Shown: positions 1 to 32,512, numbered from the stretch's first letter. The stretch is DNA of 64,000 nt from Minisyncoccota bacterium (GCA_965222235.1 OZ244939.1:400107-464106); one strand, 5' to 3'. Numbers and translations are program-made. The notes: generated by a model not told the origin, from the sequence alone.

Positions 1-832
1 GCACCGTAATTGCATCCCGGGGATTGGCGAGACGAACGGCGATACCGGAGACATTATTCGCCGGATTCACCACATGTCCCCGCACCTCATCGGCATGCAT
101 CATGACGCTCAGATCCAGCTCGCCGGCTTTCGTGCGGTACACACCCCGCACCAGATACTTCTGGAGCACGCCGCCGGATCCGGAGCGCCGCGGACGCAAT
201 GAACCGGGCTGCTGAACATCGCTGTCAACCTGCCCGAATTCTCCCGACCGAACATCTCCGATACGGATATACACCGAATCGCCGGGGTGAATGCCGGAAA
301 GAACATCGGCACCGAAGGGTGAATACCGCTCCATCAGCGCGCTGCCGACAAGAACTTCACGCCGACCGGTGCCGGAGAAATACTCACCTTCAAGAATACG
401 CCGGGACAGCCCTGTGGTCGCATCCTCTTCAGCGGGATTAATGCCGAGCACCGTTCCGCTGACCGTGTGCCGTTTCTCATTCACATTGATAACATTAAAG
501 ATCTCGTCTTCGGCGATAATCTCAACGCGCGCGGCAAGACGGGGAGACAGCGCGGCAACCCGCGGATTGCCGGTAAGTTGGGAGATGATCTGCTGAGAAC
601 GGTTCACAAAAATCTGACCCTCTTTCGGAGAAATATAGACATCGCCCAATGCTCTCTCGCGCAGTCCGTCAAACGATCCGACAACGATACCCTCCAAAAT
701 ACCGCCGACCACGGTGAGGTTAAGAAAGGTGAGCAGCATGATAAATGTGATAAGTATGGTCGTCCAAATATTCGCACCGCGAATATACCGCGTAACGAGA
801 AAAAAACCTACTGTAATATCATTCCTCTTCAT
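1..832 (-). CDS. ABC transporter permease, MacB/FtsX family. Only the N-terminal part lies in the window; the 3-prime end runs off the window start.
   Basis: Translating the minus strand by hand from the ATG at 830-832 gives MKRNDITVGFFLVTRYIRGANIWTTILITFIMLLTFLNLTVVGG..., a TM helix followed by a large extracytoplasmic domain, as in MacB. It is absent from the ORF track because it has no stop inside the window. It overlaps the end of the upstream adaptor gene by 14 bp. Confidence 0.55.
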   Translation of the reverse strand, partial: MKRNDITVGFFLVTRYIRGANIWTTILITFIMLLTFLNLTVVGGILEGIVVGSFDGLRERALGDVYISPKEGQIFVNRSQQIISQLTGNPRVAALSPRLAARVEIIAEDEIFNVINVNEKRHTVSGTVLGINPAEEDATTGLSRRILEGEYFSGTGRREVLVGSALMERYSPFGADVLSGIHPGDSVYIRIGDVRSGEFGQVDSDVQQPGSLRPRRSGSGGVLQKYLVRGVYRTKAGELDLSVMMHADEVRGHVVNPANNVSGIAVRLANPRDAITV

Positions 833-2366
833 GGGCACCGGTGTCAAAAATGACCACATCATCGGCATACAGTTCGCCGGTGACCACGACCATACCGTCA
901 TCGAGGGATTCGCCGACGGTAACCGATACCGACATCGTATCCCCGCCCCGCTCAACGATTACATATTCGTGCAAATCTTTGCGCATCACCGCAAGCCACG
1001 GCACGGCGAACACATCAACCGGACTGCCTGACGGAATCTGCACATCAATCGTCATGCCCGACCGCAGACCGGATGTGCTGCCGATCACATCAAAGACAAC
1101 TGTGTATACCGCGACATCGCTGATCCGCTTCTCGGTAATATCAATGGTGCGAACGCGAACGGGCACTGTTTCACCGGTCACCTCAACAATTGCCTCCACA
1201 TCCTGACCCTGTTGCATGTGCTGCACTTCAACCTCGGTCACATCAACCACTACGGTAAACCCGTCGCGGGAAATAAAGCGCGCCGCATCCGTTCCCTGCA
1301 CCACAAATTCACCCGCCTTCACGAACATTTCACCGATAACACCGTCAAACGGCGCGTAGACTCTGGTCTTCGCCAGGCGCAGCTCAAGCTGGCGCAGTTT
1401 TTCCTCTTCGGCACCCACCTGCGCCGCCTGCGCGCGCTGGTCGGCATCAGTACCACCGTTCAGCAATTCGGCGGACTGGGCGAGCGCGAGATCATACTGC
1501 GCACGGGCATGCTCAATATCGGCGGCATGCTTTGTCATACTGACTACGAACTCAAGGAGCGCGGTCCGGGTTTTGGCGAGCAGTAGAAATGCCTCGTGAT
1601 ATTCCGAACGGGCGGATCGGAGAGGCAGAAGCGCATCATACATGGTGACAACGCCGCCGTGCAGAAAACGTAAATCCGTATCAAACTGCTCAAGGATGGC
1701 AAGCACCTGCCGATAATCAGAAATATTGTTGCCGGACCACACGCGCCACCGAATAAACACCGCCTCGGCATCCTGCCGCATCTTATTAATCCGCTGTTTG
1801 GTAACGACGGGCACATCGGGCTCAAAATACGGATCGTCGGGTGTGCCGCCGAACAGTGTATCAAGCTCGGTACGCACCATATTCTCAAACAGCGAGGCGG
1901 TGTGCTGGGCGGAGACCAGTGCGATACGCGCTTTGTTTTCAAGCGTCTGCTCGGAAACGGCGGTGTTCGCCTTAACCCGGGTGCGCTCAGGATGCTCCGG
2001 ACCCGTGATAACGCTGTTCAGCCGGATCTGCTCCCGCTCAAGCCGTGAACGCTGCTCTTTTACCTGCGCGGCAAGTGTATCAAAACCCAGTGAGGCAATA
2101 ACGGAGCCGGCGAACACGATATCTCCCGCATCATAGTTCACCTCCCGCACAACGCCGCCGTCCTCAAACGCAAGCGAGACATCGTCACGCGCTTCAATGG
2201 TGCCGGTAGCGATAGAAAGGTCCTGATGCTGTGTCGGTATAACCTGTGCTCTGTGTTTGGTATCGGACATATGAATAGGGTGTAAAAAACTGATACTAGT
2301 ATACAACAAAAAAACACCCAAAAGAACGATGCAAAGAGCAAGAACAGGTCGGGGAAAAATATTCAT
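819..2366 (-). CDS. Periplasmic adaptor / membrane-fusion protein of the HlyD/MacA family.
   Basis: It has an N-terminal TM anchor, long coiled-coil segments (LRQLELRLAKTR) and a C-terminal beta-barrel/lipoyl-like segment. It forms an operon with the downstream MacB-like permease. Confidence 0.65.
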   Translation of the reverse strand: MNIFPRPVLALCIVLLGVFLLYTSISFLHPIHMSDTKHRAQVIPTQHQDLSIATGTIEARDDVSLAFEDGGVVREVNYDAGDIVFAGSVIASLGFDTLAAQVKEQRSRLEREQIRLNSVITGPEHPERTRVKANTAVSEQTLENKARIALVSAQHTASLFENMVRTELDTLFGGTPDDPYFEPDVPVVTKQRINKMRQDAEAVFIRWRVWSGNNISDYRQVLAILEQFDTDLRFLHGGVVTMYDALLPLRSARSEYHEAFLLLAKTRTALLEFVVSMTKHAADIEHARAQYDLALAQSAELLNGGTDADQRAQAAQVGAEEEKLRQLELRLAKTRVYAPFDGVIGEMFVKAGEFVVQGTDAARFISRDGFTVVVDVTEVEVQHMQQGQDVEAIVEVTGETVPVRVRTIDITEKRISDVAVYTVVFDVIGSTSGLRSGMTIDVQIPSGSPVDVFAVPWLAVMRKDLHEYVIVERGGDTMSVSVTVGESLDDGMVVVTGELYADDVVIFDTGAHEEE

Positions 2367-2424
2367 TACACCAGATAGTATACTATATTAGCGAAAGAAA
2401 AAAGAAAGTGATACAATCAAGTCA

Positions 2425-2497
2425 TGGTGCCTATGGTGTAATGGTTAGCACTCAGGTTTGTGGAACCTGCAGCGAGGGTTCAAATCCCTCTAGGCAC
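2425..2497 (+). tRNA. tRNA-His (GTG), with an extra G at position -1.
   Basis: The cloverleaf was read by hand: acceptor gtgccta/taggcac, anticodon stem caggt/acctg with loop ttGTGga, T-arm gagggttcaaatccctc. Confidence 0.85.
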
Positions 2498-2605
2498 CCC
2501 CTAAGAGACAATAGACAACCATATATACCGAAGCCCCCAGTCGTTCCGCCGCCGCTTCACACCGATGAGCCACCGGCACAGCCAATAGAAAATATATGCG
2601 CACAA

Positions 2606-4987
2606 TCAACTCCCGCAGGAAATACAAACATTCGGATCGTCATCTGCCCGCTGAACGGAAACAGGGACTTTCTCCTGAACGGGAATATGTTTTTGCACCT
2701 GTTCCGGATGTTTTGAGTTATCAACCGTAAACTGTACCGCCTCAACCGCCGGTGTGTTGCGGAGATAGTACATACCGGTCTTCAGTCCCCGCCTCCAGGC
2801 ATGAAAATGCAGCGCGGTCAGCTTCCCCGCCGTCGCACCACGCATATGGATATTCATGCTCATACTCTGACAGATAAACGGACCCCTGTCGACCGCCATA
2901 TCAACAATAGAACGCTGTGAAATCTCCCACACCGTGCGGTACCGCATGCGAATATCCTCGGGGATTTCATGAATATTCTGAACGGAGCCGCGTTCGGCGA
3001 TAAGGCGACGGCGAAGATCCTCGTTCCACATACCGACCTCCTGTAAATCACGCAGTAGGTGTTTGTTAATCAGAATGAACTCGCCGGAAATCACCCGCCG
3101 CACATACAGATTGGAAGTGAACGGCTCTATTGACTCATTATTGCCGAACACCTGCGCGGTCGTGGCGGTGGGCATCGGCGCCATGAAAAGAGAGTTGCGC
3201 AGACCGTGGCGCACCATATCAGTGCGGGTTTTTTCCCAGTCCCACAGACCGGAATCGGGCGACATACCCCACAAATCAAACTGGAACTTCCCTTCGGAAG
3301 CGGGAGAACCGGGAAATGTCTCATAGTGCCCGTCCTTCTCGGCAAGCTCAACGGACGCCTCAAGCGCGCCGTGATAAATAGTTTCAAAAATGTTCTTGTT
3401 CAGTTCCCGCGCCCTCGGCTCGTCAAAAGTTAATTTCATCAGCGCGAATGTGTCGGCAAGACCCTGTATGCCGATGCCAATCGGACGGTGGCGCAGATTG
3501 GAATACTCCATCTCAGGAAGAACATACAGATTCCGGTCAATTACCTTGTTCAGATTGCGACAGACGATTTTCGCCACATCATGCAGCCGCTCAAAATCAT
3601 AGGTGCCGTCTGTGCGGATAAACTGATTCACACAAATGGAGGCAAGATTGCAGATTGCTGTTTCCTTGTCGTCGGAATATTCAATGATCTCGGTGCACAG
3701 ATTGCTGCTGCGGATGGTGCCGAGATTCTTCTGATTTGACTTGTGGTTCGCGGTGTCCTTATAGAGCATGAACGGTGTGCCGGTCTCAATCTGCGCATTG
3801 ACGATGTGAAACCACAAATCCCGCGCCTTGACCGTCTTCACACCGCGCCCCTCAGACTCATACTGCTTATACAGCGTCTCAAACTCTCTGCCGTACACAT
3901 TAAAGAGACCGGGGCACTCATTGGGACACATCAGCATCCACTCGCCGTCCGCTTCCACCCGGCGCATGAACTCGTCGGGGACCCAGAGCGCCAAAAATAA
4001 ATCCCGGGAGCGGCGCTCCTCGGCACCGTGGTTTTTCCGCAGGTCAATGAAATCAAACACATCGGCATGCCATGGCTCAAGGTAAATACAGAATGCGCCC
4101 TTACGCTTCCCGCCCTGATCAACATACCGTGCGGTCTCATTGAACACGCGCAGCATCGGCACGAGGCCGTTGGATGTGCCGCGAGACTTTGTGATGAAAC
4201 TGCCCGTCGCGCGGATATTGTGCATACTAATTGACAACCCGCCGCCGGACTGAGACACCAACGCTGCGTCGGTCATCGTTTTGTAAATGCCTCTGATGCT
4301 GTCTTCGGACATCGCGAGGAGAAAGCAGGAACTCATCTGCGGACACGGTGTGCCGGCATTGAACAATGTCGGTGTCGCATGTATGAAATCCTTCCGGGAC
4401 ATGTGGTGATAGGTCTCAAACGCGGCCTTCAGGTCATACCCGTGAATACCGAGCGCAACACGCATGAACATATGCTGCGGCCGTTCAACCACACGATTAT
4501 GCATCCGCATCAGATATTTCTGACCCTCCAGTGTTTTGAAACCGAAAAAGTCAAATACATCATAATCCCGGTTGTGATCTATCTGTGCCTCTATCTCCTC
4601 GCCGTGCTTCGTCACGATATCCAACAACTCATCGGACACGAACGGCACATGTCGGCCGGTCTTCGGCTCAACATGTGCGTGCAGCCGCTGTATCACCTCA
4701 ACAAAGGACGGCGTGGTGTCCTTGTGGAGATTGGAAATGGCGATGCGTGCGGCAAGGCGCAGAAAATCGGAATGGGTGGTCGCCATAGAAGCGCAGATGC
4801 GTGCGGCAAGATCATCAAGCTCCGCCGTCTTTATCTCATCATGCAGTCCGTCAACGACCCGGCGGGTGATTTCAGCCGGATCAATAAAGGCGGCATCCAG
4901 GCCTGTTGTCAGGGAGGAAATACGCTCCAGAATAGCGTCAAACCGCACTTCTTCCCGATCTCCGCTCCTTTTGATTACATACATCAT
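2606..4987 (-). CDS. nrdA: Ribonucleoside-diphosphate reductase, class Ia alpha subunit with an N-terminal ATP-cone.
   Basis: 793 aa. It has the ATP-cone MMYVIKRSGDREEVRFD, the NLCTEI active-site motif, and C-terminal CISCGS cysteines. Confidence 0.9.
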   Translation of the reverse strand: MMYVIKRSGDREEVRFDAILERISSLTTGLDAAFIDPAEITRRVVDGLHDEIKTAELDDLAARICASMATTHSDFLRLAARIAISNLHKDTTPSFVEVIQRLHAHVEPKTGRHVPFVSDELLDIVTKHGEEIEAQIDHNRDYDVFDFFGFKTLEGQKYLMRMHNRVVERPQHMFMRVALGIHGYDLKAAFETYHHMSRKDFIHATPTLFNAGTPCPQMSSCFLLAMSEDSIRGIYKTMTDAALVSQSGGGLSISMHNIRATGSFITKSRGTSNGLVPMLRVFNETARYVDQGGKRKGAFCIYLEPWHADVFDFIDLRKNHGAEERRSRDLFLALWVPDEFMRRVEADGEWMLMCPNECPGLFNVYGREFETLYKQYESEGRGVKTVKARDLWFHIVNAQIETGTPFMLYKDTANHKSNQKNLGTIRSSNLCTEIIEYSDDKETAICNLASICVNQFIRTDGTYDFERLHDVAKIVCRNLNKVIDRNLYVLPEMEYSNLRHRPIGIGIQGLADTFALMKLTFDEPRARELNKNIFETIYHGALEASVELAEKDGHYETFPGSPASEGKFQFDLWGMSPDSGLWDWEKTRTDMVRHGLRNSLFMAPMPTATTAQVFGNNESIEPFTSNLYVRRVISGEFILINKHLLRDLQEVGMWNEDLRRRLIAERGSVQNIHEIPEDIRMRYRTVWEISQRSIVDMAVDRGPFICQSMSMNIHMRGATAGKLTALHFHAWRRGLKTGMYYLRNTPAVEAVQFTVDNSKHPEQVQKHIPVQEKVPVSVQRADDDPNVCISCGS

Positions 4988-10568: not shown

Positions 10569-10800
10569 GGCGGAATATTTATACCAACAGTATCCGCTTT
10601 TATAGGTGCCGTAACAAAAGCTTGAAATACCAAAAAAGACGAGCTGATTTCACTATGATGAAGATAAATATCAATATATGGTTCCACAAACCTAAAATCC
10701 AAATGCTATTCAACACAATCAACCACATTAAATAAATTACAAATAGGGAATGTTGTACCGCCGAATATCACGATTTCGGATACCAGTCAGTGATCCTGAT

Positions 10801-10856
10801 GGTACAGTGTTGGAACTCAAAAAACAACTCACAGAAAATTTTGAAGAGTGAAAATA
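10801..10856. repeat. Left copy of a 56-bp inverted repeat. Its partner at 12308-12363 is 54/56 identical.
   Basis: ggtacagtgttggaactcaaaaaacaactcacagaaaattttgaagagtgaaaata matches the reverse complement of 12308-12363. Confidence 0.8.
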
Positions 10857-11624
10857 AATTGTGATATACTGTCACACATGCCTACATCAGCACAAATTAA
10901 ATCTCTAGAGAAAAAACTCAAGGAGTACAAGAAGCGTTTTCTCACTAGAAAACACGAGGGGCTGGACGAGGCATCAACTCGTCTAATGACAAACAATTTC
11001 CTAATCAATATACTTGGTTATGCCGAATTTGAGGAGGTTAAGACAGAATATAATATTTCTGGAGAATATGCTGATTATGTTATACAAATAGGGAGAAAAA
11101 AGCATTTTATTATTGAAGTAAAATCAATATCACTTGACCTGAGTGATAAACATCTTCGTCAAGCAACGAATTATGCAGTTAGCGAAGGTATTGACTGGAT
11201 TTTGCTCACCAACGGCACCGCATTTATGCTGTATCGCATTTTGTTTAACAAGCCAATTTCCATAAAAAAAGTATTTGAACACGACATAGGTAAAGAAAAG
11301 AATCTGCAGAGTGCCAGCAAAGATATTGCACTTCTAACTAAAAAGAGTGTTGGGAAAAATGAGCTTGAAAAACACTGGGGGCGATTTGAGGTAGTTGAGC
11401 CAGCCGGACTTAGCAAACTTCTATACCACAAAACCGTAGTAGCCAGCCTACGAAGAGTTATGAGACAGAAAACAAGCCTTTCTTTTTCCGAAGAAGAGGT
11501 GTTGGACGCACTGCATGGATTAATCACCAAACAAATTGAGAATGTGAAGCCGACAAGACCAATTGAACCACGGACAAGAAAGCCGCGCACTGTAGAAAAT
11601 AACAATACACTAAATCATGATTAA
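10848..11624 (+). CDS. PD-(D/E)xK nuclease-fold protein, resembling the type I restriction enzyme R-subunit N-terminal domain (HsdR_N-like). It stands alone.
   Basis: The motif EYADYVIQIG...HFIIEVKS has the D...E-x-K signature in the usual spacing. 258 aa. It is AT-rich relative to its flanks. Confidence 0.5.
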   Translation: MKINCDILSHMPTSAQIKSLEKKLKEYKKRFLTRKHEGLDEASTRLMTNNFLINILGYAEFEEVKTEYNISGEYADYVIQIGRKKHFIIEVKSISLDLSDKHLRQATNYAVSEGIDWILLTNGTAFMLYRILFNKPISIKKVFEHDIGKEKNLQSASKDIALLTKKSVGKNELEKHWGRFEVVEPAGLSKLLYHKTVVASLRRVMRQKTSLSFSEEEVLDALHGLITKQIENVKPTRPIEPRTRKPRTVENNNTLNHD

Positions 11625-12021
11625 GTTTGCGGACAAGAGCGCAGAGAAAAAATTTAATGAGATTTGGAATATCTCTAATAAATCTATACTGGAGAATGAA
11701 CGAGTTAAAAAATATACTACAGCCAGACGGTCCAAATGTCATTGAAAAAACTACAGCAGGTGCGGGCAACAGTGCTTGACTGTTGACTAAGGTGGAGCCT
11801 GAAAAGAATGCACCACAAAAGGTTCCGAATGAGAGAGGATTGGGTGGTAGTAGTAGACCACCATCTGAAGTAAATCCTGAAAATACTGAAAACACCGGTG
11901 AGTCTGATGGTGAAGCAAGACCGCGCCAAGAAGAAAACGAGTAATTACATGTTTTACAGATTGGTTACAGGTGATTAATGAAATCAAAAATAGCACCACA
12001 CCCTCCTCCTTTGGACTTTTT

Positions 12022-12207
12022 GCAGAGCGTTAGCGGAGCAAAAAAGACAAAGGTGGGGAAACGAAGCGAAACAGAAACACCGAGCCGAAAAGTGAAAAAA
12101 TAAGACGGGCGTGCGTACACACCACCGTCTTATTTTTGAACGAGCGAGGTGCTGTCTGTGAAGCGAAGTGGTGCTCGTTATACTACTGAGCGTGTCTCGC
12201 GCCTTTC
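12022..12207 (+). other. Conserved non-coding module, copy 1: a purine-rich tract, a rho-independent terminator-like hairpin with a T-run, then the box GAACGRGCRAGGTG...GTGAAG...CGCGCCTTTC.
   Basis: Its first 121 nt align with 31174-31294 with no net indels (see findings); overall identity by eye is about 60-65%. The hairpin taagacgg...ccgtcttatttttg is replaced in copy 2 by a different stem. Confidence 0.5.
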
Positions 12208-12307
12208 GGAGCTCCCAATTTTCTTTTTCAATTTATCCCACCGCCCCTTTTCACGCGCTTGTCACAGAACCAGTGAAGACGGAAACAGGAAAATGGTGAA
12301 AGATCTG

Positions 12308-12363
12308 TATTTTCACTCTTCAAAACTTTCTGTGAGTTGTTTTCTGAGTTCCAACACTGTACC
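12308..12363. repeat. Right copy of the 56-bp inverted repeat, 6 bp from the tRNA-Glu 3-prime end.
   Basis: Reverse complement of 10801-10856 with 2 mismatches. Confidence 0.8.
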
Positions 12364-12369
12364 TTTAGG

Positions 12370-12441
12370 TGACCCTACGGGGAATCGAACCCCGGTTTTC
12401 GCCGTGAGAGGGCGATGTCCTAGCCGCTAGACGATAGGGCC
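12370..12441 (-). tRNA. tRNA-Glu (CTC).
   Basis: The reverse complement reads ggccctatcgtctagcggctaggacatcgccCTCtcacggcgaaaaccggggttcgattccccgtagggtca. The acceptor has one G-U pair. Anticodon stem tcgcc/ggcga, T-arm cggggttcgattccccg. Confidence 0.75.
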
Positions 12442-16752: not shown

Positions 16753-17900
16753 CCCAAGTTCAAACAAATAATAGAACACCTGTCATATACCAAGTAATAC
16801 TGGAGACATATGACAAAAGCAAAGAAAAAGAGACGGGAACCGTTCACCCGTCTGAATATTCATGAACGGAGTAGTATTGAAGTGAGATACTGTGCTGACA
16901 AGAGATCCCTGCGGGAGATAGCGAAAGAGTTGGGCAGGTCACCGGGAACCATACATCGGGAAATAGGGGGAAAACCGAGAAAAGGAGTCGGACGGTACTG
17001 CGCGCTGAGGGCACAGCGGGAAGCAGAGAAAAGGATACACACCCGGGGGAGGAAAGGAGTGCTGACCGACAGAGCACTCCTTGGGTATGTGCGGGAGAAG
17101 ATGGAGGAAGGATGGTCTCCCGAGCAGGTGAGTATTCGTCTTCCCCGGGAGTTTCCGGAGGACACAACCATGCGGGTATCTCATGAGACGATATATACCT
17201 TCATATATGCGCAGATTCACCAAAGCGGACACGGTATCGTGAAACCGGGGTATCTAGACTTACGGTCTCTTCTGCCGAGAAGAAGGAAGAGACGCATACG
17301 GCAAGGAGTGAGAAACACACAGAAAACAGAACGAAGAGCGGCCTTGCCCTCCATAGAGGAGAGACCGGGGATAGAGGGGGTAATCGGTCATTGGGAAGGT
17401 GACACCATGCTCTCAAGGAAAAGCAGCGTTAGGGTAAAGAGTATGAATGAAAAGATGACCGGTCTGGCATTCTTTGAGAAAACAAAAGACGGTACCGCTG
17501 AGTCCTGTGACGCGGCAATCATCAGACGAATGCGCGCTGTCCCTCCGAGATACCGCAAGACCCTCACCCAGGACAGAGGGGCGGAGAATAGGGGGTACCG
17601 CACCGTTGAAAAAGAACTCAGTCTCTCCTGCTACTTCGCCCATCCGTACTGCTCTCATGAAAGAGGATCAAACGAGAACACCAACGGATTGTTCCGTCGG
17701 TGTTTCCCGAAGGGGACTGACTTTGACAAAAGCAATGACCGTGACATTGCCAAGGTTGAGTACCTATTGAATACCCGTCCCAGGAAACGCCTTACTGGTC
17801 TGACCCCTTACGAGGTATTCTACCGCATGACCGGTGTCAATCTCCAGAGGATGGCATATTACAAACTGACAGGTGTTCAATTAGAAGTTTGAATGTAGGC
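16753..17900 (+). mobile_element. IS30-family insertion sequence, copy 1 (1148 bp).
   Basis: It is 100% identical to 29937-31084. Imperfect terminal IRs: TTCAAAC..TAAT(A/T)GAACACCTGTCA. It ends 1 bp from the metG stop codon. Confidence 0.85.
16810..17892 (+). CDS. IS30-family DDE transposase.
   Basis: 360 aa with an N-terminal HTH, the HWEGDTM motif typical of IS30 transposases, and a DDE core. It is identical to 29994-31076. Confidence 0.9.
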   Translation: MTKAKKKRREPFTRLNIHERSSIEVRYCADKRSLREIAKELGRSPGTIHREIGGKPRKGVGRYCALRAQREAEKRIHTRGRKGVLTDRALLGYVREKMEEGWSPEQVSIRLPREFPEDTTMRVSHETIYTFIYAQIHQSGHGIVKPGYLDLRSLLPRRRKRRIRQGVRNTQKTERRAALPSIEERPGIEGVIGHWEGDTMLSRKSSVRVKSMNEKMTGLAFFEKTKDGTAESCDAAIIRRMRAVPPRYRKTLTQDRGAENRGYRTVEKELSLSCYFAHPYCSHERGSNENTNGLFRRCFPKGTDFDKSNDRDIAKVEYLLNTRPRKRLTGLTPYEVFYRMTGVNLQRMAYYKLTGVQLEV

Positions 17901-20302: not shown

Positions 20303-21664
20303 GCAAAATGATACTGAACAGGGATCGTGATTCTCCTGAGGATGACCCTGAAAACGGAAAAGAAGGGCGTGAGCCCTTCTCTCCGGTCGGTAGTATGGAA
20401 ATGTATGACCATAACCATGCAAACCAACACTATCAATATACAGGACATTACTAACCTTTTGAACGCATCAGAGAACAGAGAGATTCGGAGAAAAGACACA
20501 AAAGAGGAGATATACCGGTGGATACAGGATACCGTGGTGTCCGTGCGGTACCTGAGACTCGGGAAAAAGGAGAAAGGAAAGGTGCTCAGGTATCTCACTG
20601 TCTACAGTGGGTACAGCACTTCACACATCAAACGACTGGTGCGGCAGTATGCGGAAACAGGGTATGTGCGAATGAAAGGGAGAACCCAACCGATGTTTCC
20701 GGTGATCTACACCGCAGGAGATATCAGGACACTGGCAGAGACTATGGATGCCTACGGGCATCAGAACGGGAAGGCCGTCAGAGAAACTCTTCGGGAGATG
20801 TATGCGATATATGGGGACAATCGATTCGTTCGTCTGCGACATATATCACCAGCGCATATCTACCGGCTGAAGAAGAAAGACGTGTTCAGAGCCTACGCCA
20901 GAACCTTCACGAAAACAAGGAGAACAGCGGTGCCAATCGGTGCGCGGAGGAAACCGTACCCTGCGGGAAAACCTGGATATATACGGGTGGATTCGGTGCA
21001 TCAGGGGGACAAAGAAAAGGAGAAGGGTATATATCATCTTAACCTCGTTGACGAGGTGACTCAATGGGAGGTGGTGTGCTGTGTGGAGGTGATCTCTGAG
21101 CAGTTTCTGCTGCCGGCGCTTGAGGAAGCCTTGGGTTCCTTTCCTTTCCGTCTCCTGAACCTTCATTCAGACAACGGGAGTGAGTATATCAATTACACTG
21201 TTGCCCGTCTGTTGGAGAAGCTGCGGGTGACTCAGAGCAAAGGAAGGTCACGACACTGCAATGACAATGCTCTGGTTGAGGGCAAGAATGCCGCGGTGGT
21301 GCGAAAATACATCGGACACGGGCATATTCCCAAGGACTATGCCTCCGCCATTGCTGTGTTCTACCGTGAACACTTCAATGACTTCCTCAACTTTCACCGT
21401 TGTTGTGCCTTTCCTGAGGAAATGACGCTCCCGAACGGGAAGATCAAAAAGATCTACCGGGAGTACAGAACACCGTGTCAGAAACTCCTCTCTCTGCCGG
21501 ATGCCGGACAGTATCTCAAAGAAGAAGTCACGGTCTCCTCCCTTGAAAAGAAGGCAGGAGAGACCTCACACCTTGCCGCCGCGCAGGCAATGCAGCAGGC
21601 AAAACACCGATTATTCACCTGACAACATATGTTCCATGCTATATTGTGTTTCAGTATCATTTAC
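20303..21664 (+). mobile_element. IS element of about 1.36 kb with an rve-type DDE transposase (IS481/IS3-superfamily-like) and 13-14-bp terminal IRs.
   Basis: AAATGATACTGAA at 20304-20317 matches the reverse complement at 21650-21662 (ttcagtatcattt). It carries a single transposase ORF. It lies between the rpsT and ruvA starts. Confidence 0.55.
20327..21622 (+). CDS. DDE integrase/transposase (rve core).
   Basis: RVDSVHQGD ... LHSDNGSEYIN ... NALVEGKN give the D, D and E catalytic residues with retroviral-integrase-like spacing. Confidence 0.75.
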   Translation: MILLRMTLKTEKKGVSPSLRSVVWKCMTITMQTNTINIQDITNLLNASENREIRRKDTKEEIYRWIQDTVVSVRYLRLGKKEKGKVLRYLTVYSGYSTSHIKRLVRQYAETGYVRMKGRTQPMFPVIYTAGDIRTLAETMDAYGHQNGKAVRETLREMYAIYGDNRFVRLRHISPAHIYRLKKKDVFRAYARTFTKTRRTAVPIGARRKPYPAGKPGYIRVDSVHQGDKEKEKGIYHLNLVDEVTQWEVVCCVEVISEQFLLPALEEALGSFPFRLLNLHSDNGSEYINYTVARLLEKLRVTQSKGRSRHCNDNALVEGKNAAVVRKYIGHGHIPKDYASAIAVFYREHFNDFLNFHRCCAFPEEMTLPNGKIKKIYREYRTPCQKLLSLPDAGQYLKEEVTVSSLEKKAGETSHLAAAQAMQQAKHRLFT

Positions 21665-23414: not shown

Positions 23415-23487
23415 CCGCCCATAGCTCAGTTGGTAGAGCAACGGCCTTTTAAGCCGGGGGTCCCAGGTTCGAGCCCTGGTGGGCGGA
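23415..23487 (+). tRNA. tRNA-Lys (TTT).
   Basis: ccgcccatagctcagttggtagagcaacggccttTTTaagccgggggtcccaggttcgagccctggtgggcgga. Acceptor ccgccca/tgggcgg, T-arm ccaggttcgagccctgg. The first anticodon-stem pair is mismatched and the 5-prime end is an unusual C1. Confidence 0.7.
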
Positions 23488-24966
23488 CTTTCCAGTACAA
23501 GCAAAGACACATTCACTATCGCTCGTGTGGCTGTCTTGGTCCGCGCGCCCGCAGGGCGCGCGGTAGAGGGTTTTCCACGCGCCGCGGGGCGCAAAGGTCA
23601 CACCGGTGTCGGCGAGTCGGCGGTTCAAGCCAACCTCTTTGAAAAAATCCGCCAAATCGGCAGGGTCGGTGCTATCAGTAACATTTCGCATTGCAGTTGC
23701 TTGCTCAATCACCAAAAGTGCCGGTTCAAGCCACGAATCATCATCGCCCGAGACACTCCGCAGTTTCTCCTTGATATCCATCTTTTTACCAAGTAGGATA
23801 TTTTTCTTGGCAATGTATTCTTCACGGGTGATATCACCAGAAAGAGACATATCAAGAAGATGGTCCATCTGCCCCTCAAACGCCCGCAAATCAGCGCGGA
23901 GTGTCTCGGTGCGACTTACTCCCGCCTGAGCGTCTGCATTGTACAAATCGTAAAGTTCATCTGAAATTCCACCAGCTTCGGCGGGAGTAAGGGAAACTTT
24001 TTGTAGTGCTGAGCGAACCTCCTCGTCAATTCTCTCACTGCGAACATATTTACCCGCACACTTCCCTTTTTTCTTAGTGCAGTGATAGTAGGTATGCCCT
24101 TTTTGAATTGATGAGGTGATGGAACAGCCACAATGCGCGCAGACAAGCATCTGGCGGAACGGATACCGCGCCGGGTCATGCTGCCGCACTTCCCGTCCCC
24201 GCTGTTCCATAATCGCTCGGCACTGATCAAAAAGTTTCTTGGTGATAAGTGGCGTATGCGCACCCTCGTGGGTTTCGCCGCCCCACGCTACCAAACCGTA
24301 ATATATCGGATTGTTAAGTATCCAGTGAACATTGCTCGCCGGAGTAAGATTGCCACGCCTGTTTTTAAATCTGAGAGACCGAAAGGTGAACTTACCGGTG
24401 GCATATTTTTCAAAAAGCGAAACCACGAGGGGTGCATACTCGGGGTCGGGGTCTATAGTATTCGTGTTGCGGTTATTTATATACCCGAAAGGTGCTCGTG
24501 ACGGGTGGATACCCCGCCGCGCCTTATTCCTCATACCACGGCGAACATTCTCGCTGAGGTTGTCTACATAGAGTTTGCTCTGACCGAATGCGAGGGTGAG
24601 GCAGAAAATACCGTGTGGTGTATTTTCAAAAGTGTAAGTCGGAAAACGCAGAGCAGCACCGCGTTGCTCCACCAATTCAACCAGTTTTGCGCCGTCCGTC
24701 ATATTGCGGGCAAGTCGGTCCGGATGCCAGGATAAAATGCCTTCCGCCTCACCCAGGGCGATGCGACCGAGCATCGCCTCAAAAACTTTTCTCCCGGGTT
24801 GCTTGGCGGATTGTTTCTCCGTCAAAACCTCAGTCACACTGACACCATTCTTGCGAGCGAAAGCGCGCAACTCTGCAATCTGATCGGGTATACTCTGCAC
24901 CTGTTTGTCTCTGTCATCAGTGCTTTTGCGAGCATATATAAAAAGTTTTTGCAAGCGTTCGGTCAT
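23449..24966 (-). CDS. Large serine recombinase (resolvase-type catalytic domain, recombinase domain, zinc ribbon).
   Basis: Trimmed to MTERLQKLFIYARKSTDDRDKQVQSIPDQ (catalytic Ser in YARKST). The zinc ribbon is CAHCGCSIT...YYHCTKK...C. The ORF 3-prime end runs 39 bp into tRNA-Lys on the antisense strand. Confidence 0.85.
   Translation of the reverse strand: MTERLQKLFIYARKSTDDRDKQVQSIPDQIAELRAFARKNGVSVTEVLTEKQSAKQPGRKVFEAMLGRIALGEAEGILSWHPDRLARNMTDGAKLVELVEQRGAALRFPTYTFENTPHGIFCLTLAFGQSKLYVDNLSENVRRGMRNKARRGIHPSRAPFGYINNRNTNTIDPDPEYAPLVVSLFEKYATGKFTFRSLRFKNRRGNLTPASNVHWILNNPIYYGLVAWGGETHEGAHTPLITKKLFDQCRAIMEQRGREVRQHDPARYPFRQMLVCAHCGCSITSSIQKGHTYYHCTKKKGKCAGKYVRSERIDEEVRSALQKVSLTPAEAGGISDELYDLYNADAQAGVSRTETLRADLRAFEGQMDHLLDMSLSGDITREEYIAKKNILLGKKMDIKEKLRSVSGDDDSWLEPALLVIEQATAMRNVTDSTDPADLADFFKEVGLNRRLADTGVTFAPRGAWKTLYRAPCGRADQDSHTSDSECVFACTGKSAHQGSNLGPPA
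23488..23629. repeat. 142-bp perfect inverted repeat, left copy. It encodes the last ~49 codons of the recombinase and contains the palindromes ccgcgcgcccgcagggcgcgcgg and gacaccggtgtc.
   Basis: The reverse complement of 25058-25199 is identical by eye. Confidence 0.85.
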
Positions 24967-25057
24967 AGTAAACGAATTGTACCATACCGACCCCGAACAA
25001 AATAAAGTACAAAGCACCGCCCTGCCAAAATAAAAAGTTTTTTAAAAAGTGGATGGT

Positions 25058-25476
25058 CTTGAACCGCCGACTCGCCGACACCGGTGTGACCTTTGCGCCC
25101 CGCGGCGCGTGGAAAACCCTCTACCGCGCGCCCTGCGGGCGCGCGGACCAAGACAGCCACACGAGCGATAGTGAATGTGTCTTTGCTTGTACTGGAAAGT
25201 CCTCTGAACAAGTAGCACTTGAACTCAAAAAACATTTTACCGAAGACACCTCGCACGCTCCACCCGCCCCGTAACTTTAATCCCAAAAGTGCCGCCAGAC
25301 AATCGCTCCGCTTACTACGGGCTCATGCTCGCAGGCTCACACCAGCCCTCCGTGCGCTCCGCTCCCGCGCCAATCACGCCGGCAGATTCTTTTTCAATTC
25401 AGCCCGCCGCCCAACCCCGCGTGCTCGCCGTTGCACCGTGTCGGGTCGGATATGGGAGTGGACGGGTGGTTTCTGA
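25058..25476. repeat. Right inverted copy of the recombinase 3-prime cassette (25058-25199) plus a 277-bp downstream segment (25200-25476). The downstream segment recurs inverted at 31401-31676.
   Basis: The plus-strand ORF 25053-25274 encodes the same C-terminal peptide as the recombinase. The ORFs 25219-25476 and 31403-31657 encode identical 85-aa stretches. Confidence 0.8.
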
Positions 25477-25514
25477 GTGCACAATAAAGACACGACAGCA
25501 CGCGAACAAACAGC

Positions 25515-25620
25515 AAAAGGATCTGCCGGCGTGATGGGGCGGGAGAACTATATGCAATCCGCCATCTTTCCTGCTTGCAAATGCTTGCGGAAAAGGCGGA
25601 TTTCCTTTATCCGACACAGG
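25515..25620 (+). repeat. Roughly 105-bp direct repeat R1 (partner at 26145-26250) with an internal imperfect hairpin and a GCTTGC-N5-GCTTGC direct repeat.
   Basis: The two copies align at about 85% identity. Confidence 0.7.
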
Positions 25621-26144: not shown

Positions 26145-26250
26145 GGAAAAGAATCTGCTGGTGTGATAGCAAGGGAGAACTATGCGTAATCCGCCATCTT
26201 TCCCGCTTGCAGACGCTTGCGGAAAGGGCAGATTTCCTTGTCCTGCTTGA
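26145..26250 (+). repeat. Direct repeat R2, the partner of R1.
   Basis: See R1. Confidence 0.7.
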
Positions 26251-26312
26251 TTTTATATTTATATATGTGAATAACTAAAATTGAAAGATTTTTTACTAGT
26301 ATTATGATAGTA

Positions 26313-27256
26313 ATGAGTGAGAAACATAAGGTTGTTTCGTTGTTTTCTGGTTGTGGGGGTCTTGATTTAGGTATTTTGGGAGGATTCACGGTATTCAAGA
26401 AAAAATACCAAAAACGAAAATTTGATATTGTCTGGGCAAATGATTTTGACAAGAATGCTTGTGAAACATTTAAAAAAATATAGGAGATCACATTGTTTGT
26501 GGGGATATAGCTAAACTTCTGCAAAATAAAAAAGAATTTTTAAAATTTGACAATATAGATGTGGTGATAGGCGGTTTTCCATGCCAAGATTTTAGTATCG
26601 CAGGAAAAAGAAAGGGAACACAAACAAAAAGAGGTAAACTATATAAAAGTTTTATTGAGGTTGTTGAATTATTACAACCAAAAATTTTTTTAGCCGAGAA
26701 TGTGAAAGGGATTTTATCTATAAAAAGCGGTTCTGTGATTAAAAAAATTATATCTGATTTTGAAAAAATCGGTTACAAGGTCGAGTATAAGTTGTTTCAT
26801 GTCGCTGATTTCGGAATTCCCCAAAATAGGGAGAGGGTTTTAATGGTCGGAGTTAAAAACGGAGCTGGAAATTTTATTTTTCCAAAACCAAAAACTAAAA
26901 AGAGGCTCTCAGTTGGTCAAGTAATACAAGATTTAGAACACTTACCGGAAGGTGCTATTCACAATCACTTTTGGAGTAAAGCAAGAAAGAATAGTGGACA
27001 GGGAAATACTCGTATTAATAAAAATAAAATTGCTCCGACAATGCGCGCCGAGCATCACGGAAATATAGAATACCATTGGAATAAGAGGAGGAGGTTGTCC
27101 GCAAGAGAGGCTGCAAGGATTCAATCGTTCCCTGATAACTTTATTTTTTACCCATCAACTTCCCAAGCATACAGGCAAATTGGAAACGCTGTTCCACCAG
27201 TGATGGGTTGGCATATGGCGAAAGCGATGGAGAATTTTTTTGAGAGGTCTCTATGA
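26313..27256 (+). pseudogene. DNA (cytosine-5)-methyltransferase (Dcm-type) interrupted by a -1 frameshift in an A7 tract at 26471-26477.
   Basis: The N-terminal ORF MSEKHKVVSLFSGCGGLDLG carries motif I and stops at TAG at 26478-26480. Motif IV GGFPCQDFS, motif VI ENV and motif X QIGNAVPP continue in the +1 frame (track ORF 26561-27256). One extra A restores a single ORF of about 314 aa. Confidence 0.75.
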
Positions 27257-29936: not shown

Positions 29937-31084
29937 CCCAAGTTCAAACAAATAATAGAACACCTGTCATATACCAAGTAATACTGGAGACATATGACAA
30001 AAGCAAAGAAAAAGAGACGGGAACCGTTCACCCGTCTGAATATTCATGAACGGAGTAGTATTGAAGTGAGATACTGTGCTGACAAGAGATCCCTGCGGGA
30101 GATAGCGAAAGAGTTGGGCAGGTCACCGGGAACCATACATCGGGAAATAGGGGGAAAACCGAGAAAAGGAGTCGGACGGTACTGCGCGCTGAGGGCACAG
30201 CGGGAAGCAGAGAAAAGGATACACACCCGGGGGAGGAAAGGAGTGCTGACCGACAGAGCACTCCTTGGGTATGTGCGGGAGAAGATGGAGGAAGGATGGT
30301 CTCCCGAGCAGGTGAGTATTCGTCTTCCCCGGGAGTTTCCGGAGGACACAACCATGCGGGTATCTCATGAGACGATATATACCTTCATATATGCGCAGAT
30401 TCACCAAAGCGGACACGGTATCGTGAAACCGGGGTATCTAGACTTACGGTCTCTTCTGCCGAGAAGAAGGAAGAGACGCATACGGCAAGGAGTGAGAAAC
30501 ACACAGAAAACAGAACGAAGAGCGGCCTTGCCCTCCATAGAGGAGAGACCGGGGATAGAGGGGGTAATCGGTCATTGGGAAGGTGACACCATGCTCTCAA
30601 GGAAAAGCAGCGTTAGGGTAAAGAGTATGAATGAAAAGATGACCGGTCTGGCATTCTTTGAGAAAACAAAAGACGGTACCGCTGAGTCCTGTGACGCGGC
30701 AATCATCAGACGAATGCGCGCTGTCCCTCCGAGATACCGCAAGACCCTCACCCAGGACAGAGGGGCGGAGAATAGGGGGTACCGCACCGTTGAAAAAGAA
30801 CTCAGTCTCTCCTGCTACTTCGCCCATCCGTACTGCTCTCATGAAAGAGGATCAAACGAGAACACCAACGGATTGTTCCGTCGGTGTTTCCCGAAGGGGA
30901 CTGACTTTGACAAAAGCAATGACCGTGACATTGCCAAGGTTGAGTACCTATTGAATACCCGTCCCAGGAAACGCCTTACTGGTCTGACCCCTTACGAGGT
31001 ATTCTACCGCATGACCGGTGTCAATCTCCAGAGGATGGCATATTACAAACTGACAGGTGTTCAATTAGAAGTTTGAATGTAGGC
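29937..31084 (+). mobile_element. IS30-family insertion sequence, copy 2, identical to copy 1.
   Basis: It aligns base-for-base with 16753-17900 at an offset of 13184. Confidence 0.85.
29994..31076 (+). CDS. IS30-family DDE transposase, copy 2.
   Basis: Its 360-aa sequence is identical to copy 1. Confidence 0.9.
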   Translation: MTKAKKKRREPFTRLNIHERSSIEVRYCADKRSLREIAKELGRSPGTIHREIGGKPRKGVGRYCALRAQREAEKRIHTRGRKGVLTDRALLGYVREKMEEGWSPEQVSIRLPREFPEDTTMRVSHETIYTFIYAQIHQSGHGIVKPGYLDLRSLLPRRRKRRIRQGVRNTQKTERRAALPSIEERPGIEGVIGHWEGDTMLSRKSSVRVKSMNEKMTGLAFFEKTKDGTAESCDAAIIRRMRAVPPRYRKTLTQDRGAENRGYRTVEKELSLSCYFAHPYCSHERGSNENTNGLFRRCFPKGTDFDKSNDRDIAKVEYLLNTRPRKRLTGLTPYEVFYRMTGVNLQRMAYYKLTGVQLEV

Positions 31085-31173
31085 GCCACATGCGACAGAC
31101 GGATTAAAAAACACTAAGAATATTAAATATCGCTGATTAAATTGCACAGGCATTTCCGGCTCCGATGCTTTCC

Positions 31174-31349
31174 GCAGAGCGAATGCGGAGTGGAAAGAGG
31201 AGGAGTGGGAAAAGCGAGCGGAACGGAGCCGAGCCGAGCAGGAATGAAAAAACAGGAAAGGCTTGCGCATGCAATGCCTTCCTGTTTTTGAACGGGCAAG
31301 GTGAGAGTCCGTGAAGTGAGCGATGCCGTTCCCTATTCCGCGCCTTTCA
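31174..31349 (+). other. Conserved non-coding module, copy 2 (purine-rich tract, terminator-like hairpin, GAACGGGCAAGGTG box).
   Basis: Its first 121 nt align with 12022-12142 with no net indels. The hairpin aaaaacaggaaaggc...gccttcctgttttt has a different stem sequence but the same position and T-run. Confidence 0.5.
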
Positions 31350-31400
31350 TCGCCAAAGATTCTTTTACCTTTCCCCCGTGCGAGCCGTTGTCTATGAACA

Positions 31401-31800
31401 AAGAAACCACCCGTCCACTCCCATATCCGACCCGACACGGTGCAACGGCGAGCACGCGGGGTTGGGCGGCGGGCTGAATTGAAAAAGAATCTGCCGGCGT
31501 GATTGGCGCGGGAGCGGAGCGCACGGAGGGCTGGTGTGAGCCTGCGAGCATGAGCCCGTAGTAAGCGGAGCGATTGTCTGGCGGCACTTTTGGGATTAAA
31601 GTTACGGGGCGGGTGGAGCGTGCGAGGTGTCTTCGGTAAAATGTTTTTTGAGTTCAAGTGCTACTTGTTCAGAGGACTTTCCAGTACAAGCAAAGACACA
31701 CTCACTATTGCTCGTGTGACTTCCTTCTGCAACACGCCCTTCCAACCTGTGGTAGAGGGTTTTCCATGGCGCAACGCAGGACAAAGCAACGACATCGCTG
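31401..31800. repeat. Third copy (B) of the recombinase 3-prime cassette plus its downstream segment. It is in the orientation of the tRNA-Lys-proximal copy. 31401-31676 is near-identical to the reverse complement of 25200-25476; 31677 to about 31800 is a diverged recombinase 3-prime end.
   Basis: The minus-strand ORF 31602-31817 ends ...ECVFACTGKSSEQVALELKKHFTEDTSHAPPAP, as does 25053-25274. Confidence 0.75.
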
Positions 31801-31864: not shown

Positions 31865-32512
31865 ATGACTGATATTTTTATAGACGAAAGTGGAAATTTA
31901 GGGAAAGGAGAAAGATTTTTTATCATCTCGGTAATACAATTCAATTCCGACAACGATTATAAAAAATGGAAAAGAGTCGCAAGGAAAATTATAAAAAATA
32001 AAAAACACCTAAAAGAAATTAAATCTTCTTCAATGGATTACACTTTGAAGAGGGAGGTCTTGGAGCAGGCTAGAAAGCAAGATATAAAATTCAAAGTTTG
32101 GCTTGGTATTATTGATACAGATCACGACTATTACAAACAGAAATTTATAATGCAAGACAACTCTAAAGAGCTTGCTTTTAACTATACTTTAAAAAAGTTA
32201 TTCAAAGAGACAATTGCAAAAGAAATTCAAAAAGAAGTGGCCATAGTATATGTTGATCAGCGAAACACCAAAACAGGATCAAGATATTCGTTGGGTGATT
32301 ATTTAAACGCAGAAATTCTTCACGACCCGGATGTCCCACTACAAAAGATTATTATTTATTACCAAGATTCAAAGAATAATTATGGCATCCAACTATCAGA
32401 TCTGATTGCAAATATTACTTACACCAAACTTGAGCACAATAAATCAAAATATCTTTTTAAAAAATATGTGAGTCCAAGATTATCAGGTAAATGCAAATAC
32501 CCAGAGTGTTGA
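31865..32512 (+). CDS. DUF3800-family protein.
   Basis: The N-terminal MTDIFIDESGNLGKG matches the DUF3800 signature (I-F/Y-I-D-E-S-G). 215 aa. AT-rich island gene. Confidence 0.55.
   Translation: MTDIFIDESGNLGKGERFFIISVIQFNSDNDYKKWKRVARKIIKNKKHLKEIKSSSMDYTLKREVLEQARKQDIKFKVWLGIIDTDHDYYKQKFIMQDNSKELAFNYTLKKLFKETIAKEIQKEVAIVYVDQRNTKTGSRYSLGDYLNAEILHDPDVPLQKIIIYYQDSKNNYGIQLSDLIANITYTKLEHNKSKYLFKKYVSPRLSGKCKYPEC

Follow-up and report, generated by a model that had tools for sequence, protein, structure and literature searches.

A structured non-coding module repeated in tRNA-adjacent islands: a possible terminator and insulator at cargo boundaries

Two module copies in islands beside tRNA genes

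The DNA analysed here is a stretch of 64,000 nucleotides (nt) from a Minisyncoccota bacterium (GCA_965222235.1, OZ244939.1:400107-464106; hereafter the window), in which an earlier note, made from the sequence alone, had paired 12022-12207 (copy 1) with 31174-31349 (copy 2) as a repeated non-coding module at borders of mobile DNA. Both copies do lie inside islands that are adjacent to tRNA genes and bracketed by inverted repeats, and the proposed tie to mobile DNA is thereby borne out. From comparison with related loci the module is, in our judgement, a previously undescribed family of structured non-coding sequence, and we read it tentatively, with a probability of roughly 0.45, as a structured terminator and insulator at the boundary between island and cargo, a function that is predicted.

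Copy 1 occupies a 1.8-kb insertion between tRNA-Ser and tRNA-Glu whose cargo is an HSDR_N-like gene; because a related genome (locus L011) has only ~126 nt between the same two tRNA genes, ~10569-12367 can be taken as inserted DNA. Copy 2 belongs to an 8.2-kb island at tRNA-Lys, and the domains of the island recombinase (Table 1) identify it as a large serine recombinase (LSR). This island reads, in order, LSR gene on the minus strand, an inverted copy of the LSR 3' end (X), an arm, the cargo (a small gene, a Dcm methylase gene that appears frameshifted, a Vsr gene and an AAA_15 ATPase gene), an IS30-family insertion, module copy 2 and the inverse arm. The two arms form a 345-nt inverted repeat of 96% identity, with 317 nt at 99.4%, which brackets the cargo together with copy 2, and the distal arm contains an inverse motif B, two AGCGGAGCG boxes, motif A (GTTTTTTGAGTTCAAG) and 66 nt of X. 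Since motif A repeats, cargo and module are present at both sites, a shared layout emerges: motif A (+), cargo, module (+), motif A (−), and a tRNA end or a copy of one.

The pairing of the two copies is genuine, as in-window blastn aligned 12016-12166 with 31168-31319 at 66.9% identity over 154 columns (E 6e-12), and a global gapped alignment of 11985-12215 with 31137-31360 gave 151 identities in 210 columns (72%). Neither blastn within the window nor the covariance model described below found a third copy, the latter matching exactly two sites. The conserved box TTTTTGAACGRGCRAGGTG likewise occurs exactly twice in the window, against 0.04 occurrences expected from shuffles. The length of ~185 nt given in the earlier note proved too short: the element spans ~190-260 bases, with copies at ~11992-12259 and 31146-31396. 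A five-copy profile (nhmmer) matches the window at 12001-12259 and 31150-31396, and the covariance model matches 11996-12185 (172 bits) and 31146-31338 (159.8 bits), the scores of the seven seed copies being high by construction. Within the copy 1 tail, which is common to L010a, L010c and L018a, lies motif B, a motif with three matches in the window and 0 expected.

One way to account for the resemblance would be a decayed C-terminal coding tail followed by a terminator, given that copy 1 carries an open reading frame (ORF) of 41 codons (11978-12103) that ends just before the hairpin and that copy 2 aligns in frame with it, with two 3-nt shifts. However, the substitutions between the window copies, which are transition-rich as had been noted (31 versus 16), spread evenly over the codon positions (16/14/17). 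No reading frame stays open across the seven distinct copies described below, stops fall in every frame in several of them, indels measure 1-2 nt, and the same bases are accounted for by covarying helices. We therefore rejected the coding tail, which is effectively refuted, and the module is non-coding, as had been proposed. Known RNA families offered no match either: with Rfam 15 at the gathering threshold only the six tRNAs in the window were found, and at a permissive threshold over both modules the best matches were at chance level (E 3.7-7.6), so that neither module is assigned to a family. A full-text literature search returned no description of these islands or of the element.

Homologues and the shared fold

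Relatives of the window LSR led to their contigs, and the nine loci obtained around eight homologues (~230 kb sampled) were searched for the module with blastn, nhmmer and a covariance model. Together the window and these nine loci hold eight full-length copies, seven of them distinct, and about six short or partial ones; further homologues, whose absence the earlier note had named as grounds for refutation, thus exist. Short or rearranged variants occur in L012, L013, L014, L015 and L018, and the covariance-model matches outside the seed are L018 578-757 (68 bits), L014 (45), L013 (22), L015 (18) and L012 (13). The L012 and L014 variants retain the helices P0 and P1 described below without P2 and P3, L013 carries an expanded insert, and L018 578-757 is fused to arm sequence. 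The LSR homologues bear Patescibacteria-group names wherever the source names them and lie on contigs of up to ~0.83 Mb, several of which are labelled circular; the related module-bearing genomes (~0.6-0.8 Mb) probably belong to the Patescibacteria (candidate phyla radiation, CPR). All homologues come from one narrow clade.

Searches beyond these loci returned nothing of the family. A strict exact-pattern scan of species-representative genomes gave 0 matches, a protein-anchored scan of the same genomes with the neighbouring 753-aa membrane protein found no relatives, a metagenome pattern scan gave three matches that were all due to chance on inspection, and two viral pattern scans yielded no real homologue (of two matches, the one inspected was a chance match). 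Blastn against plasmids and phages found nothing, and exact-protein look-ups of MetRS, DUF3800 and the IS30 transposase recovered only fragments of the same genome. The lack of real homologues in genome, metagenome, viral, plasmid and phage collections indicates that the source organism is poorly represented in them.

Independent minimum free energy (MFE) folds of the two window copies agree in architecture, and RNAalifold on MAFFT alignments of five and then seven copies reproduces it. The fold consists of a closing stem P0, a hairpin P1 and a long irregular stem P2 that is capped by a hairpin P3. P0 (AGCAC.../...GTGCT, 4-8 bp) varies on one side only. P1 shows compensatory changes in 9 of 17 pairs across the seven copies, and its apical loop carries GCGGAGCG-type repeats. 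The purine-rich tract described in the earlier note is present, although it is not free: it pairs, as the 3' arm of this hairpin, with a pyrimidine-rich 5' arm immediately before it. In P2, three pairs are compensatory (75/189, 80/184 and 85/179) and, as we read the helix, there are two tandem G·A internal loops, which would explain why GUGAAAAA / UUUUUGAAC and CACCGAGC / GCGAGGUG are invariant; the L011 copy has a perfect 11-bp stem (CCGCACCTCGC/GCGAGGTGCGG) in place of a P2 tandem G·A loop. Apart from the helices, the loop and junction sequences are highly conserved (GCGGAGCG repeats, GGGAAAAACG and GTGGAGTGGTGC).

P3, the tip of P2, comprises an A-run (A5-7), a variable stem of 7-13 bp and an invariant downstream TTTTTGAAC, giving a TTTTT tract that is invariant on the plus strand and a tract of 5-7 U on the minus strand. 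Its position and T-run are constant, as had been claimed, with 32 nt between TGAAAAAA and TTTTTGAACG in both window copies. Folding energies lie at about −21 to −23 kcal/mol on either strand (z −4.4 to −5.6), so a stable stem-loop is followed immediately by a U-tract in both directions; on the plus strand the window hairpins reach −21.5 and −22.8 kcal/mol (z −4.9 and −4.4) with similar values on the minus strand, that of copy 1 being −21.4 kcal/mol (z −5.6). Describing the two window stems as completely different went too far, since the two hairpins agree at 16 of 32 positions and differ by compensatory swaps in three stem pairs (hand count on the sequences), but the divergence itself holds: once the five further copies are added, five distinct stem sequences occupy one fixed position among the seven.

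The proposal that this structure is under selection was supported by the seven-copy MAFFT alignment, for which RNAalifold gave 53 pairs, 21 of them with compensatory changes. Standard pairing was found in 93.9% of pair cells, compared with 41-51% when partners were slid by 1-3 columns, and compensatory cells numbered 38 (in 21 pairs) compared with 2-9 cells (2-7 pairs) in these slid controls. None of 500 shuffles reached the observed values of pairing and compensation. The bulk of the covariation falls in P1 and P3.

The fold is also specific to one strand. The consensus contains 24 G·U cells versus 7 A·C cells (binomial p 0.003), and its energy is −46.2 kcal/mol on the plus strand versus −28.9 kcal/mol on the minus strand. 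In four of five copies the single-sequence MFE is better on the plus strand by 16-24 kcal/mol and the z-score against shuffles is more negative there; for a shorter stretch of copy 2 (31152-31330) the values are −76.4 (plus) and −52.6 kcal/mol (minus). Because a double-stranded site or a cruciform would not give such a bias, the fold is selected in one strand, and a DNA cruciform or double-stranded site is disfavoured by the G·U excess together with the plus-strand preference. As the simplest reading, this pattern points to RNA, with a single-stranded DNA intermediate as the formal alternative.

The octamer AGCGGAGC was found seven times in the window (12032, 22691, 25305, 25356, 31513, 31564 and 32816) versus 1.2 expected. 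One occurrence is in the copy 1 P1 loop and each arm holds two, and 2-3 tandem GCGGAG units occupy the P1 loop in related loci; the octamer may be a protein-binding box.

Island context and cargo replacement

In 7 of the 8 LSR loci scanned for tRNA genes (L010-L015 and the window; the scan left out L016 and L018), the LSR 3' end overlaps a convergent tRNA gene (Lys, Val, Gly, Ala or Asp). The fetched loci carry restriction-modification or other defence genes upstream of the LSR, and about 12 of about 14 module copies lie on the cargo side of the recombinase, the other two being in tRNA-adjacent mini-islands. In seven of 12 copies the distance from a co-directional stop codon to the module start is 0-160 nt (several at 0-15 nt), and in one more it is ~300 nt, the upstream genes being ResIII, UvrD-like, HaeII endonuclease and hypothetical genes. 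In four of the 12 (window copy 2, two L018 sites and L014) the gene on the 5' side is divergent. Modules often stand tail to tail with another module or an arm, as in L010, where 4614-4873 (+) faces 5176-4944 (−). The arm itself is conserved (G-rich strand) upstream of recombinases in eight loci.

Features of the fold and of this context could also suit an independent small non-coding RNA gene of ~190 nt, island-borne with its own promoter and acting in trans or in cis, for example by regulating expression of the cargo or the recombinase or by partnering an island protein. The strand-specific fold, including P0 and P2 strands that extend past the U-run, is more in keeping with a defined RNA than with a simple terminator; in four of 12 copies no co-directional gene precedes the module; the loops and junctions (GCGGAGCG repeats, GGGAAAAACG and GTGGAGTGGTGC) are conserved and the AGCGGAGC box is enriched in the window; and by our own reading the AGCA start of several copies is preceded, at a distance of 1-10 nt, by AT-rich −10-like hexamers. 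However, a consensus scan found no sigma-70-like promoter upstream of either window copy, and several copies begin 0-10 nt after a stop codon, an AT-rich context that explains the −10-like hexamers. The internal U-run terminator would moreover truncate such an RNA, and no target or protein partner was found. We regard a separate small RNA gene as unlikely.

That cargo has been replaced while the module was conserved is seen from a comparison with strain L010. Its recombinase, its arm and the first gene of its cargo match the window at 96.8%, and module copy 2 with its tail matches at 90-99.6% (window 31083-31513 corresponds to L010 5243-4811 at 90%), whereas the cargo between them differs. The left breakpoint lies directly after the hairpin of a repeat, D3 (26147-26239), and this hairpin, too, has a different apex in each strain; the right-hand breakpoint is found ~75 nt before the copy 2 core and ~10 nt from the IS30 insertion point. 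Different loci show unrelated cargo genes abutting one and the same 5' module edge (…|AGCATTTCC). A link of the module to IS30 was considered and rejected, because the L010 orthologue of copy 2 has no insertion sequence beside it; the position of copy 2 next to IS30, to which the earlier note had drawn attention, is thus incidental.

Such replacement raises the question of whether the module acts as DNA, either as a folded single-stranded site like integron attC or as a homology anchor for cargo exchange. The common 5' edge, the retention of the module while cargo changes between near-identical strains and the second hairpin-bearing repeat at the left breakpoint all fit a boundary element of this kind. 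As with attC, the module stands at the 3' edge of exchangeable cargo, structure is kept while the stem sequence varies, the fold is strand-specific, and a recombinase gene is found at the head of each island, divergent from the cargo. By contrast with attC, the recombinase is an LSR and not an IntI tyrosine recombinase, R''/L''-L'/R' boxes are lacking, the module occurs in both orientations, cargo comprises several genes and the flanks are strongly conserved. The RYYYAAC / GTTRRRY core sites of attC are absent: the module has AGCAYYYCC and GTGGTGC at its conserved ends, a GTTRRRY core was not seen, and GTTAGCG, found in copy 1 only, is not conserved. Instead of a co-oriented array of single-gene cassettes, modules stand tail to tail and after multi-gene units.

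LSRs act on short double-stranded att sites, not on folded single strands, and such a site is an imperfectly symmetric duplex of ~40-50 bp at the junctions of an integrated element. The module differs in each respect: copy 2 stops ~280 nt short of the island-bounding 45-nt direct repeat (31674-31718), on its inner side, other copies occupy internal positions between cargo operons, and the fold is strand-biased, which disfavours an att site, as a double-stranded one would not need a strand-specific fold. The role of att-site arm suggested in the earlier note accordingly finds no support. The ORFs scanned around the two window sites include no tyrosine integrase, excised-cassette junctions were not observed, and the L010 breakpoint ~75 nt upstream of the core falls outside the fold. 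A DNA-level boundary or recombination element is thus rather improbable.

A broader proposal would make the module, the arm and the D3 repeats together a cis-acting boundary signal of an integron-like, LSR-run system of cargo capture and exchange at tRNA genes in Patescibacteria, in which the module would serve either in folded single-stranded form or as RNA in partnership with the recombinase. It is compatible with our results because cargo swaps beside the conserved module, the 5' edge is shared, the fold is strand-specific and inverted repeats flank the LSR, yet we hold it to be very doubtful.

Turning to the repeats themselves, the LSR gene is bracketed by an inverted repeat of 107-249 nt (91-100% identical within a locus) in the window (23485-23647 / 25038-25202) and in all eight related loci tested. 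One arm of it is made of the LSR 3' end plus the last 4-17 nt of the convergent tRNA, while the other lies 50-70 nt upstream of the LSR start codon, whereas LSRs of different loci share only 55-98% identity. Such a pattern is suggestive of inversion or gene conversion that is still under way; no inversion isoform of the recombinase segment was seen, L016 and L017 being colinear. The stem of a hairpin in the cargo-bracketing arm covaries between loci, for example GGGCTGGTA/TACCAGCCC versus CTTGC/GCAAG. D3 itself is a 93-nt direct repeat (25515-25607 / 26147-26239, 84%) that flanks one small gene, opening with an arm-like box (AAAAGRATCTGCYGGYGTGAT) and closing in a hairpin. Upstream of the recombinase in L013 there is a very large inverted duplication (~420-4300 and 8620-4750) that holds two copies of a gene for a 758-aa VWA-domain protein and small genes, with module-like sequences at both outer ends.

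Table 1. Coordinates of the module copies and of the island features around them (window positions unless a locus is named).
Feature	Position	Strand	Description
Copy 1 structured core	11992..12175	+	P0 5' arm AGCACCAC (11992-11999) to P0 3' arm GTGGTGCT (12168-12175); MFE −73.9 kcal/mol
Copy 1 hairpin P1	12003..12058	+	apical loop GCAGAGCGTTAGCGGAGC; helices CTCC/GGGG, CCTTTG/CAAAGG, TTTTTGC/GCAAAAA
Copy 1 stem P2, P3-capped	12066..12164	+	ACAGA/TCTGT, CACC/GGTG, GC/GC, GT/AC, two tandem G·A internal loops (our reading)
Copy 1 P3	12096..12137	+	A-run, stem TAAGACGG/CCGTCTTA, U-run; terminator form on both strands
Copy 1 3' tail	12176..12259	+	AGCGTGTCTCGCGCCTTTC, motif B TTCTTTTTCAATTTATCCCACCGCCC (12221-12246), TTTTCACGCGCTTGTCAC; nhmmer profile positions to 259
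Copy 2 5' extension	31085..31148	+	conserved with strain L010, partly with L016; start of the island frame ~10 nt left of the IS30 insertion point
Copy 2 structured core	31149..31327	+	P0 GGCATT/GATGCC; P1 31155-31210; P2 and P3 31214-31321; P3 31248-31289; MFE −80.9 kcal/mol
Copy 2 3' tail	31328..31396	+	CGCGCCTTTC, ATTCTTTTACC variant of motif B, CCCCCGTGCGAGCCG; nhmmer
Full-length copy outside window	L010 4614-4873	+	
Full-length copy outside window	L010 18971-18722	−	
Full-length copy outside window	L011 6356-6118	−	
Full-length copy outside window	L016 2908-3134	+	
Full-length copy outside window	L018 5162-4905	−	
Orthologue of window copy 2	L010 5176-4944	−	99.6% identical
Left inverted repeat (motif A), copy 1 island	10795..10856	.	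pairs with 12308-12369, 62 nt at 94%
Right inverted repeat (motif A), copy 1 island	12308..12369	.	abuts tRNA-Glu 3' end
tRNA-Glu	12368-12441	−	
tRNA-Lys	23415-23488		overlapped by 3' end of LSR gene
LSR gene, tRNA-Lys island	23449..25017	−	Pfam Resolvase, Recombinase, Zn_ribbon_recom
45-nt direct repeat	23485..23529 (left), 31674-31718 (right)	+	95.6% identity; brackets 8.2-kb island
Inverted copy of LSR 3' end (X)	25038-25202		within tRNA-Lys island
Proximal arm	25137..25481	.	between recombinase gene and cargo; partner of distal arm
Distal arm	31395..31739	.	abuts copy 2 tail to tail

Candidate roles of the module

Structured intergenic repeats that are co-transcribed with genes are known in other bacteria, namely BOX (pneumococcal), ERIC/IRU (enterobacterial), REP/BIME and the neisserial Correia elements. 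In general these repeats resemble the module in being 100-300 nt long, multi-copy and lineage-restricted, in forming long imperfect hairpins with optional sub-modules and in lying at gene ends, with proposed roles in mRNA stability, termination and processing. They differ from it in that the module lacks terminal inverted repeats and target duplications, shows no dispersal beyond recombinase- and tRNA-linked islands in most of the sampled copies and has no sequence relation to any of them. Only the 4-8 bp of P0 pair the ends, as opposed to the features of Correia elements or miniature inverted-repeat transposable elements (MITEs), no duplications were seen at the edges read, and no pair of occupied and empty sites was found for the module alone. 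The roughly 14 full, short and partial copies in the ~230 kb sampled lie almost all in island DNA, with only one on a housekeeping flank.

These observations bear on the possibility of a selfish or neutral structured element, comparable to BOX, ERIC, Correia or MITE sequences, that spreads in the mobile DNA of this lineage and whose terminator-like hairpin is incidental. The multiple copies of the module and its modular make-up (the short L012 and L014 variants, the L013 insert and the L018 578-757 arm fusion) would be expected of such a repeat, as would the motifs that it has in common with other local repeats (arms and D3). The restriction of nearly all sampled copies to islands and the absence of target-site duplications at the edges read, or of terminal inverted repeats beyond P0, count against it, however, and compensatory, strand-biased substitutions mark selection on the fold. 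We think a selfish or neutral origin improbable.

Other structured RNAs were compared as well. GOLLD, ROOL and further mobile-element RNAs in Rfam are, like the module, structured, non-coding, backed by covariation and carried by mobile DNA beside tRNA genes; unlike them, the module matches no Rfam family, has a much smaller core (~190 nt) and ends in a terminator-like tip. No reverse transcriptase domain, as would accompany the msr/msd of a retron, was found among the scanned ORFs or in the gene tables of related loci. Of the roles listed in the earlier note, a small RNA or 3' untranslated region (UTR) element of a mobile element that contains a terminator fits best.

We therefore return to the terminator and insulator, for which P3 is the key element. 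Like bidirectional intrinsic terminators, P3 is a stable stem-loop with a U-run directly after it and a complementary A-run before it. The module tends to lie just past a gene or between convergent units, but in four of 12 copies the gene on the 5' side is divergent. Unlike such terminators, P3 is embedded in ~150 nt of conserved, covarying, strand-specific structure, part of which lies downstream of the U-run, and the module as a whole recurs as a sequence family in a single type of mobile island. By analogy, it may be likened to a BOX-, ERIC- or Correia-like structured intergenic repeat with a bidirectional intrinsic terminator inside it, although its sequence matches none of these families.

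In the model that we favour, the module would form the conserved distal boundary of the cargo region in small islands at tRNA 3' ends, most of which have an LSR. It would be transcribed on the given (+) strand, usually as the 3' end of the last cargo operon, and the transcript is predicted to fold into the P0-closed structure, with P1 as a side hairpin and the long irregular helix P2 bearing P3 at its tip between the A-run and the U-run. P3 sits where cargo transcription would meet oppositely oriented island sequence. Acting as an intrinsic terminator in both directions, it could stop cargo transcription from entering the inverted arm and the recombinase, and could equally block transcription in the opposite direction. 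A stable, possibly processed, 3' end of the transcript may be provided by the lower stems (P0-P2 and P1). As the module belongs to the frame of the island and not to the cargo, it could also serve as conserved flanking homology during cargo replacement.

Several points weigh against this model. The sequence family, its fold and covariation, the strand bias, the location and the replacement of cargo are observed, whereas transcription, termination, insulation and stabilisation by the module are what we infer from sequence. Since the U-run precedes the 3' strands of both P2 and P0, these can pair only in read-through transcripts, and a plain terminator leaves their covariation unexplained. A 3'-UTR role cannot be universal, given the divergent 5' gene in four of 12 copies. 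No promoter was found inside the arm, and the single promoter-like site found for the recombinase is located outside the arm, in the interval before the start codon, leaving insulation from the arm without support. Finally, the covariation is drawn from seven sequences of one narrow lineage.

The module represents a well-supported new structured non-coding family from a lineage (Patescibacteria/CPR, to judge from the related contigs) in which very few RNAs have been described and the biology of mobile elements is essentially uncharacterised. The island architecture that it marks is unusual and recurs: a tRNA is followed by an inverted-repeat-bracketed LSR, an arm, restriction-modification or defence cargo, the module and a second arm. 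The module thus offers a handle for finding such islands in metagenomic assemblies and for delimiting their exchangeable cargo. Should the lower stems prove to have a role beyond stabilising a 3' end, the module would form a new class of RNA linked to defence-gene turnover.

Further observations concern the islands and their surroundings in the window. At 10841-10880, a promoter-like TTGAAG, an 18-nt spacer and TGaTATACT end 7 nt before the ATG (10878) of the HSDR_N-like gene, which has no Shine-Dalgarno sequence and whose −35 hexamer lies inside the left inverted repeat; its mRNA is possibly leaderless. In the tRNA-Lys island, the gene for the C-5 cytosine methylase (26305-27256) has an N-terminal FxGxG-type piece near 26305, then a stop, and the Pfam-matching ORF resumes at 26561, so that the gene appears frameshifted; its neighbours are the Vsr gene and an AAA_15/AAA_21 ATPase gene. 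The two IS30-family copies (16753-17900 and 29937-31084) are each 1148 nt long and 100% identical, and the first abuts the MetRS stop codon. Outside the 45-nt repeat a second recombinase gene survives as decayed fragments (32733-32779 matches 23791-23837 at 96%), and between them is a DUF3800 gene (31865-32512); these fragments suggest a tandem accretion of islands at one tRNA. An ORF with an rve domain (integrase core; 20327-21622) stands between the MetRS/tRNA-binding genes and ruvA, and the syntenic stretch of L011 has no such gene; it is probably another insertion element. A minus-strand ORF of 1183 codons (56343-59894) contains three tandem 156-nt repeats at 59176-59643 that are 92-100% identical.

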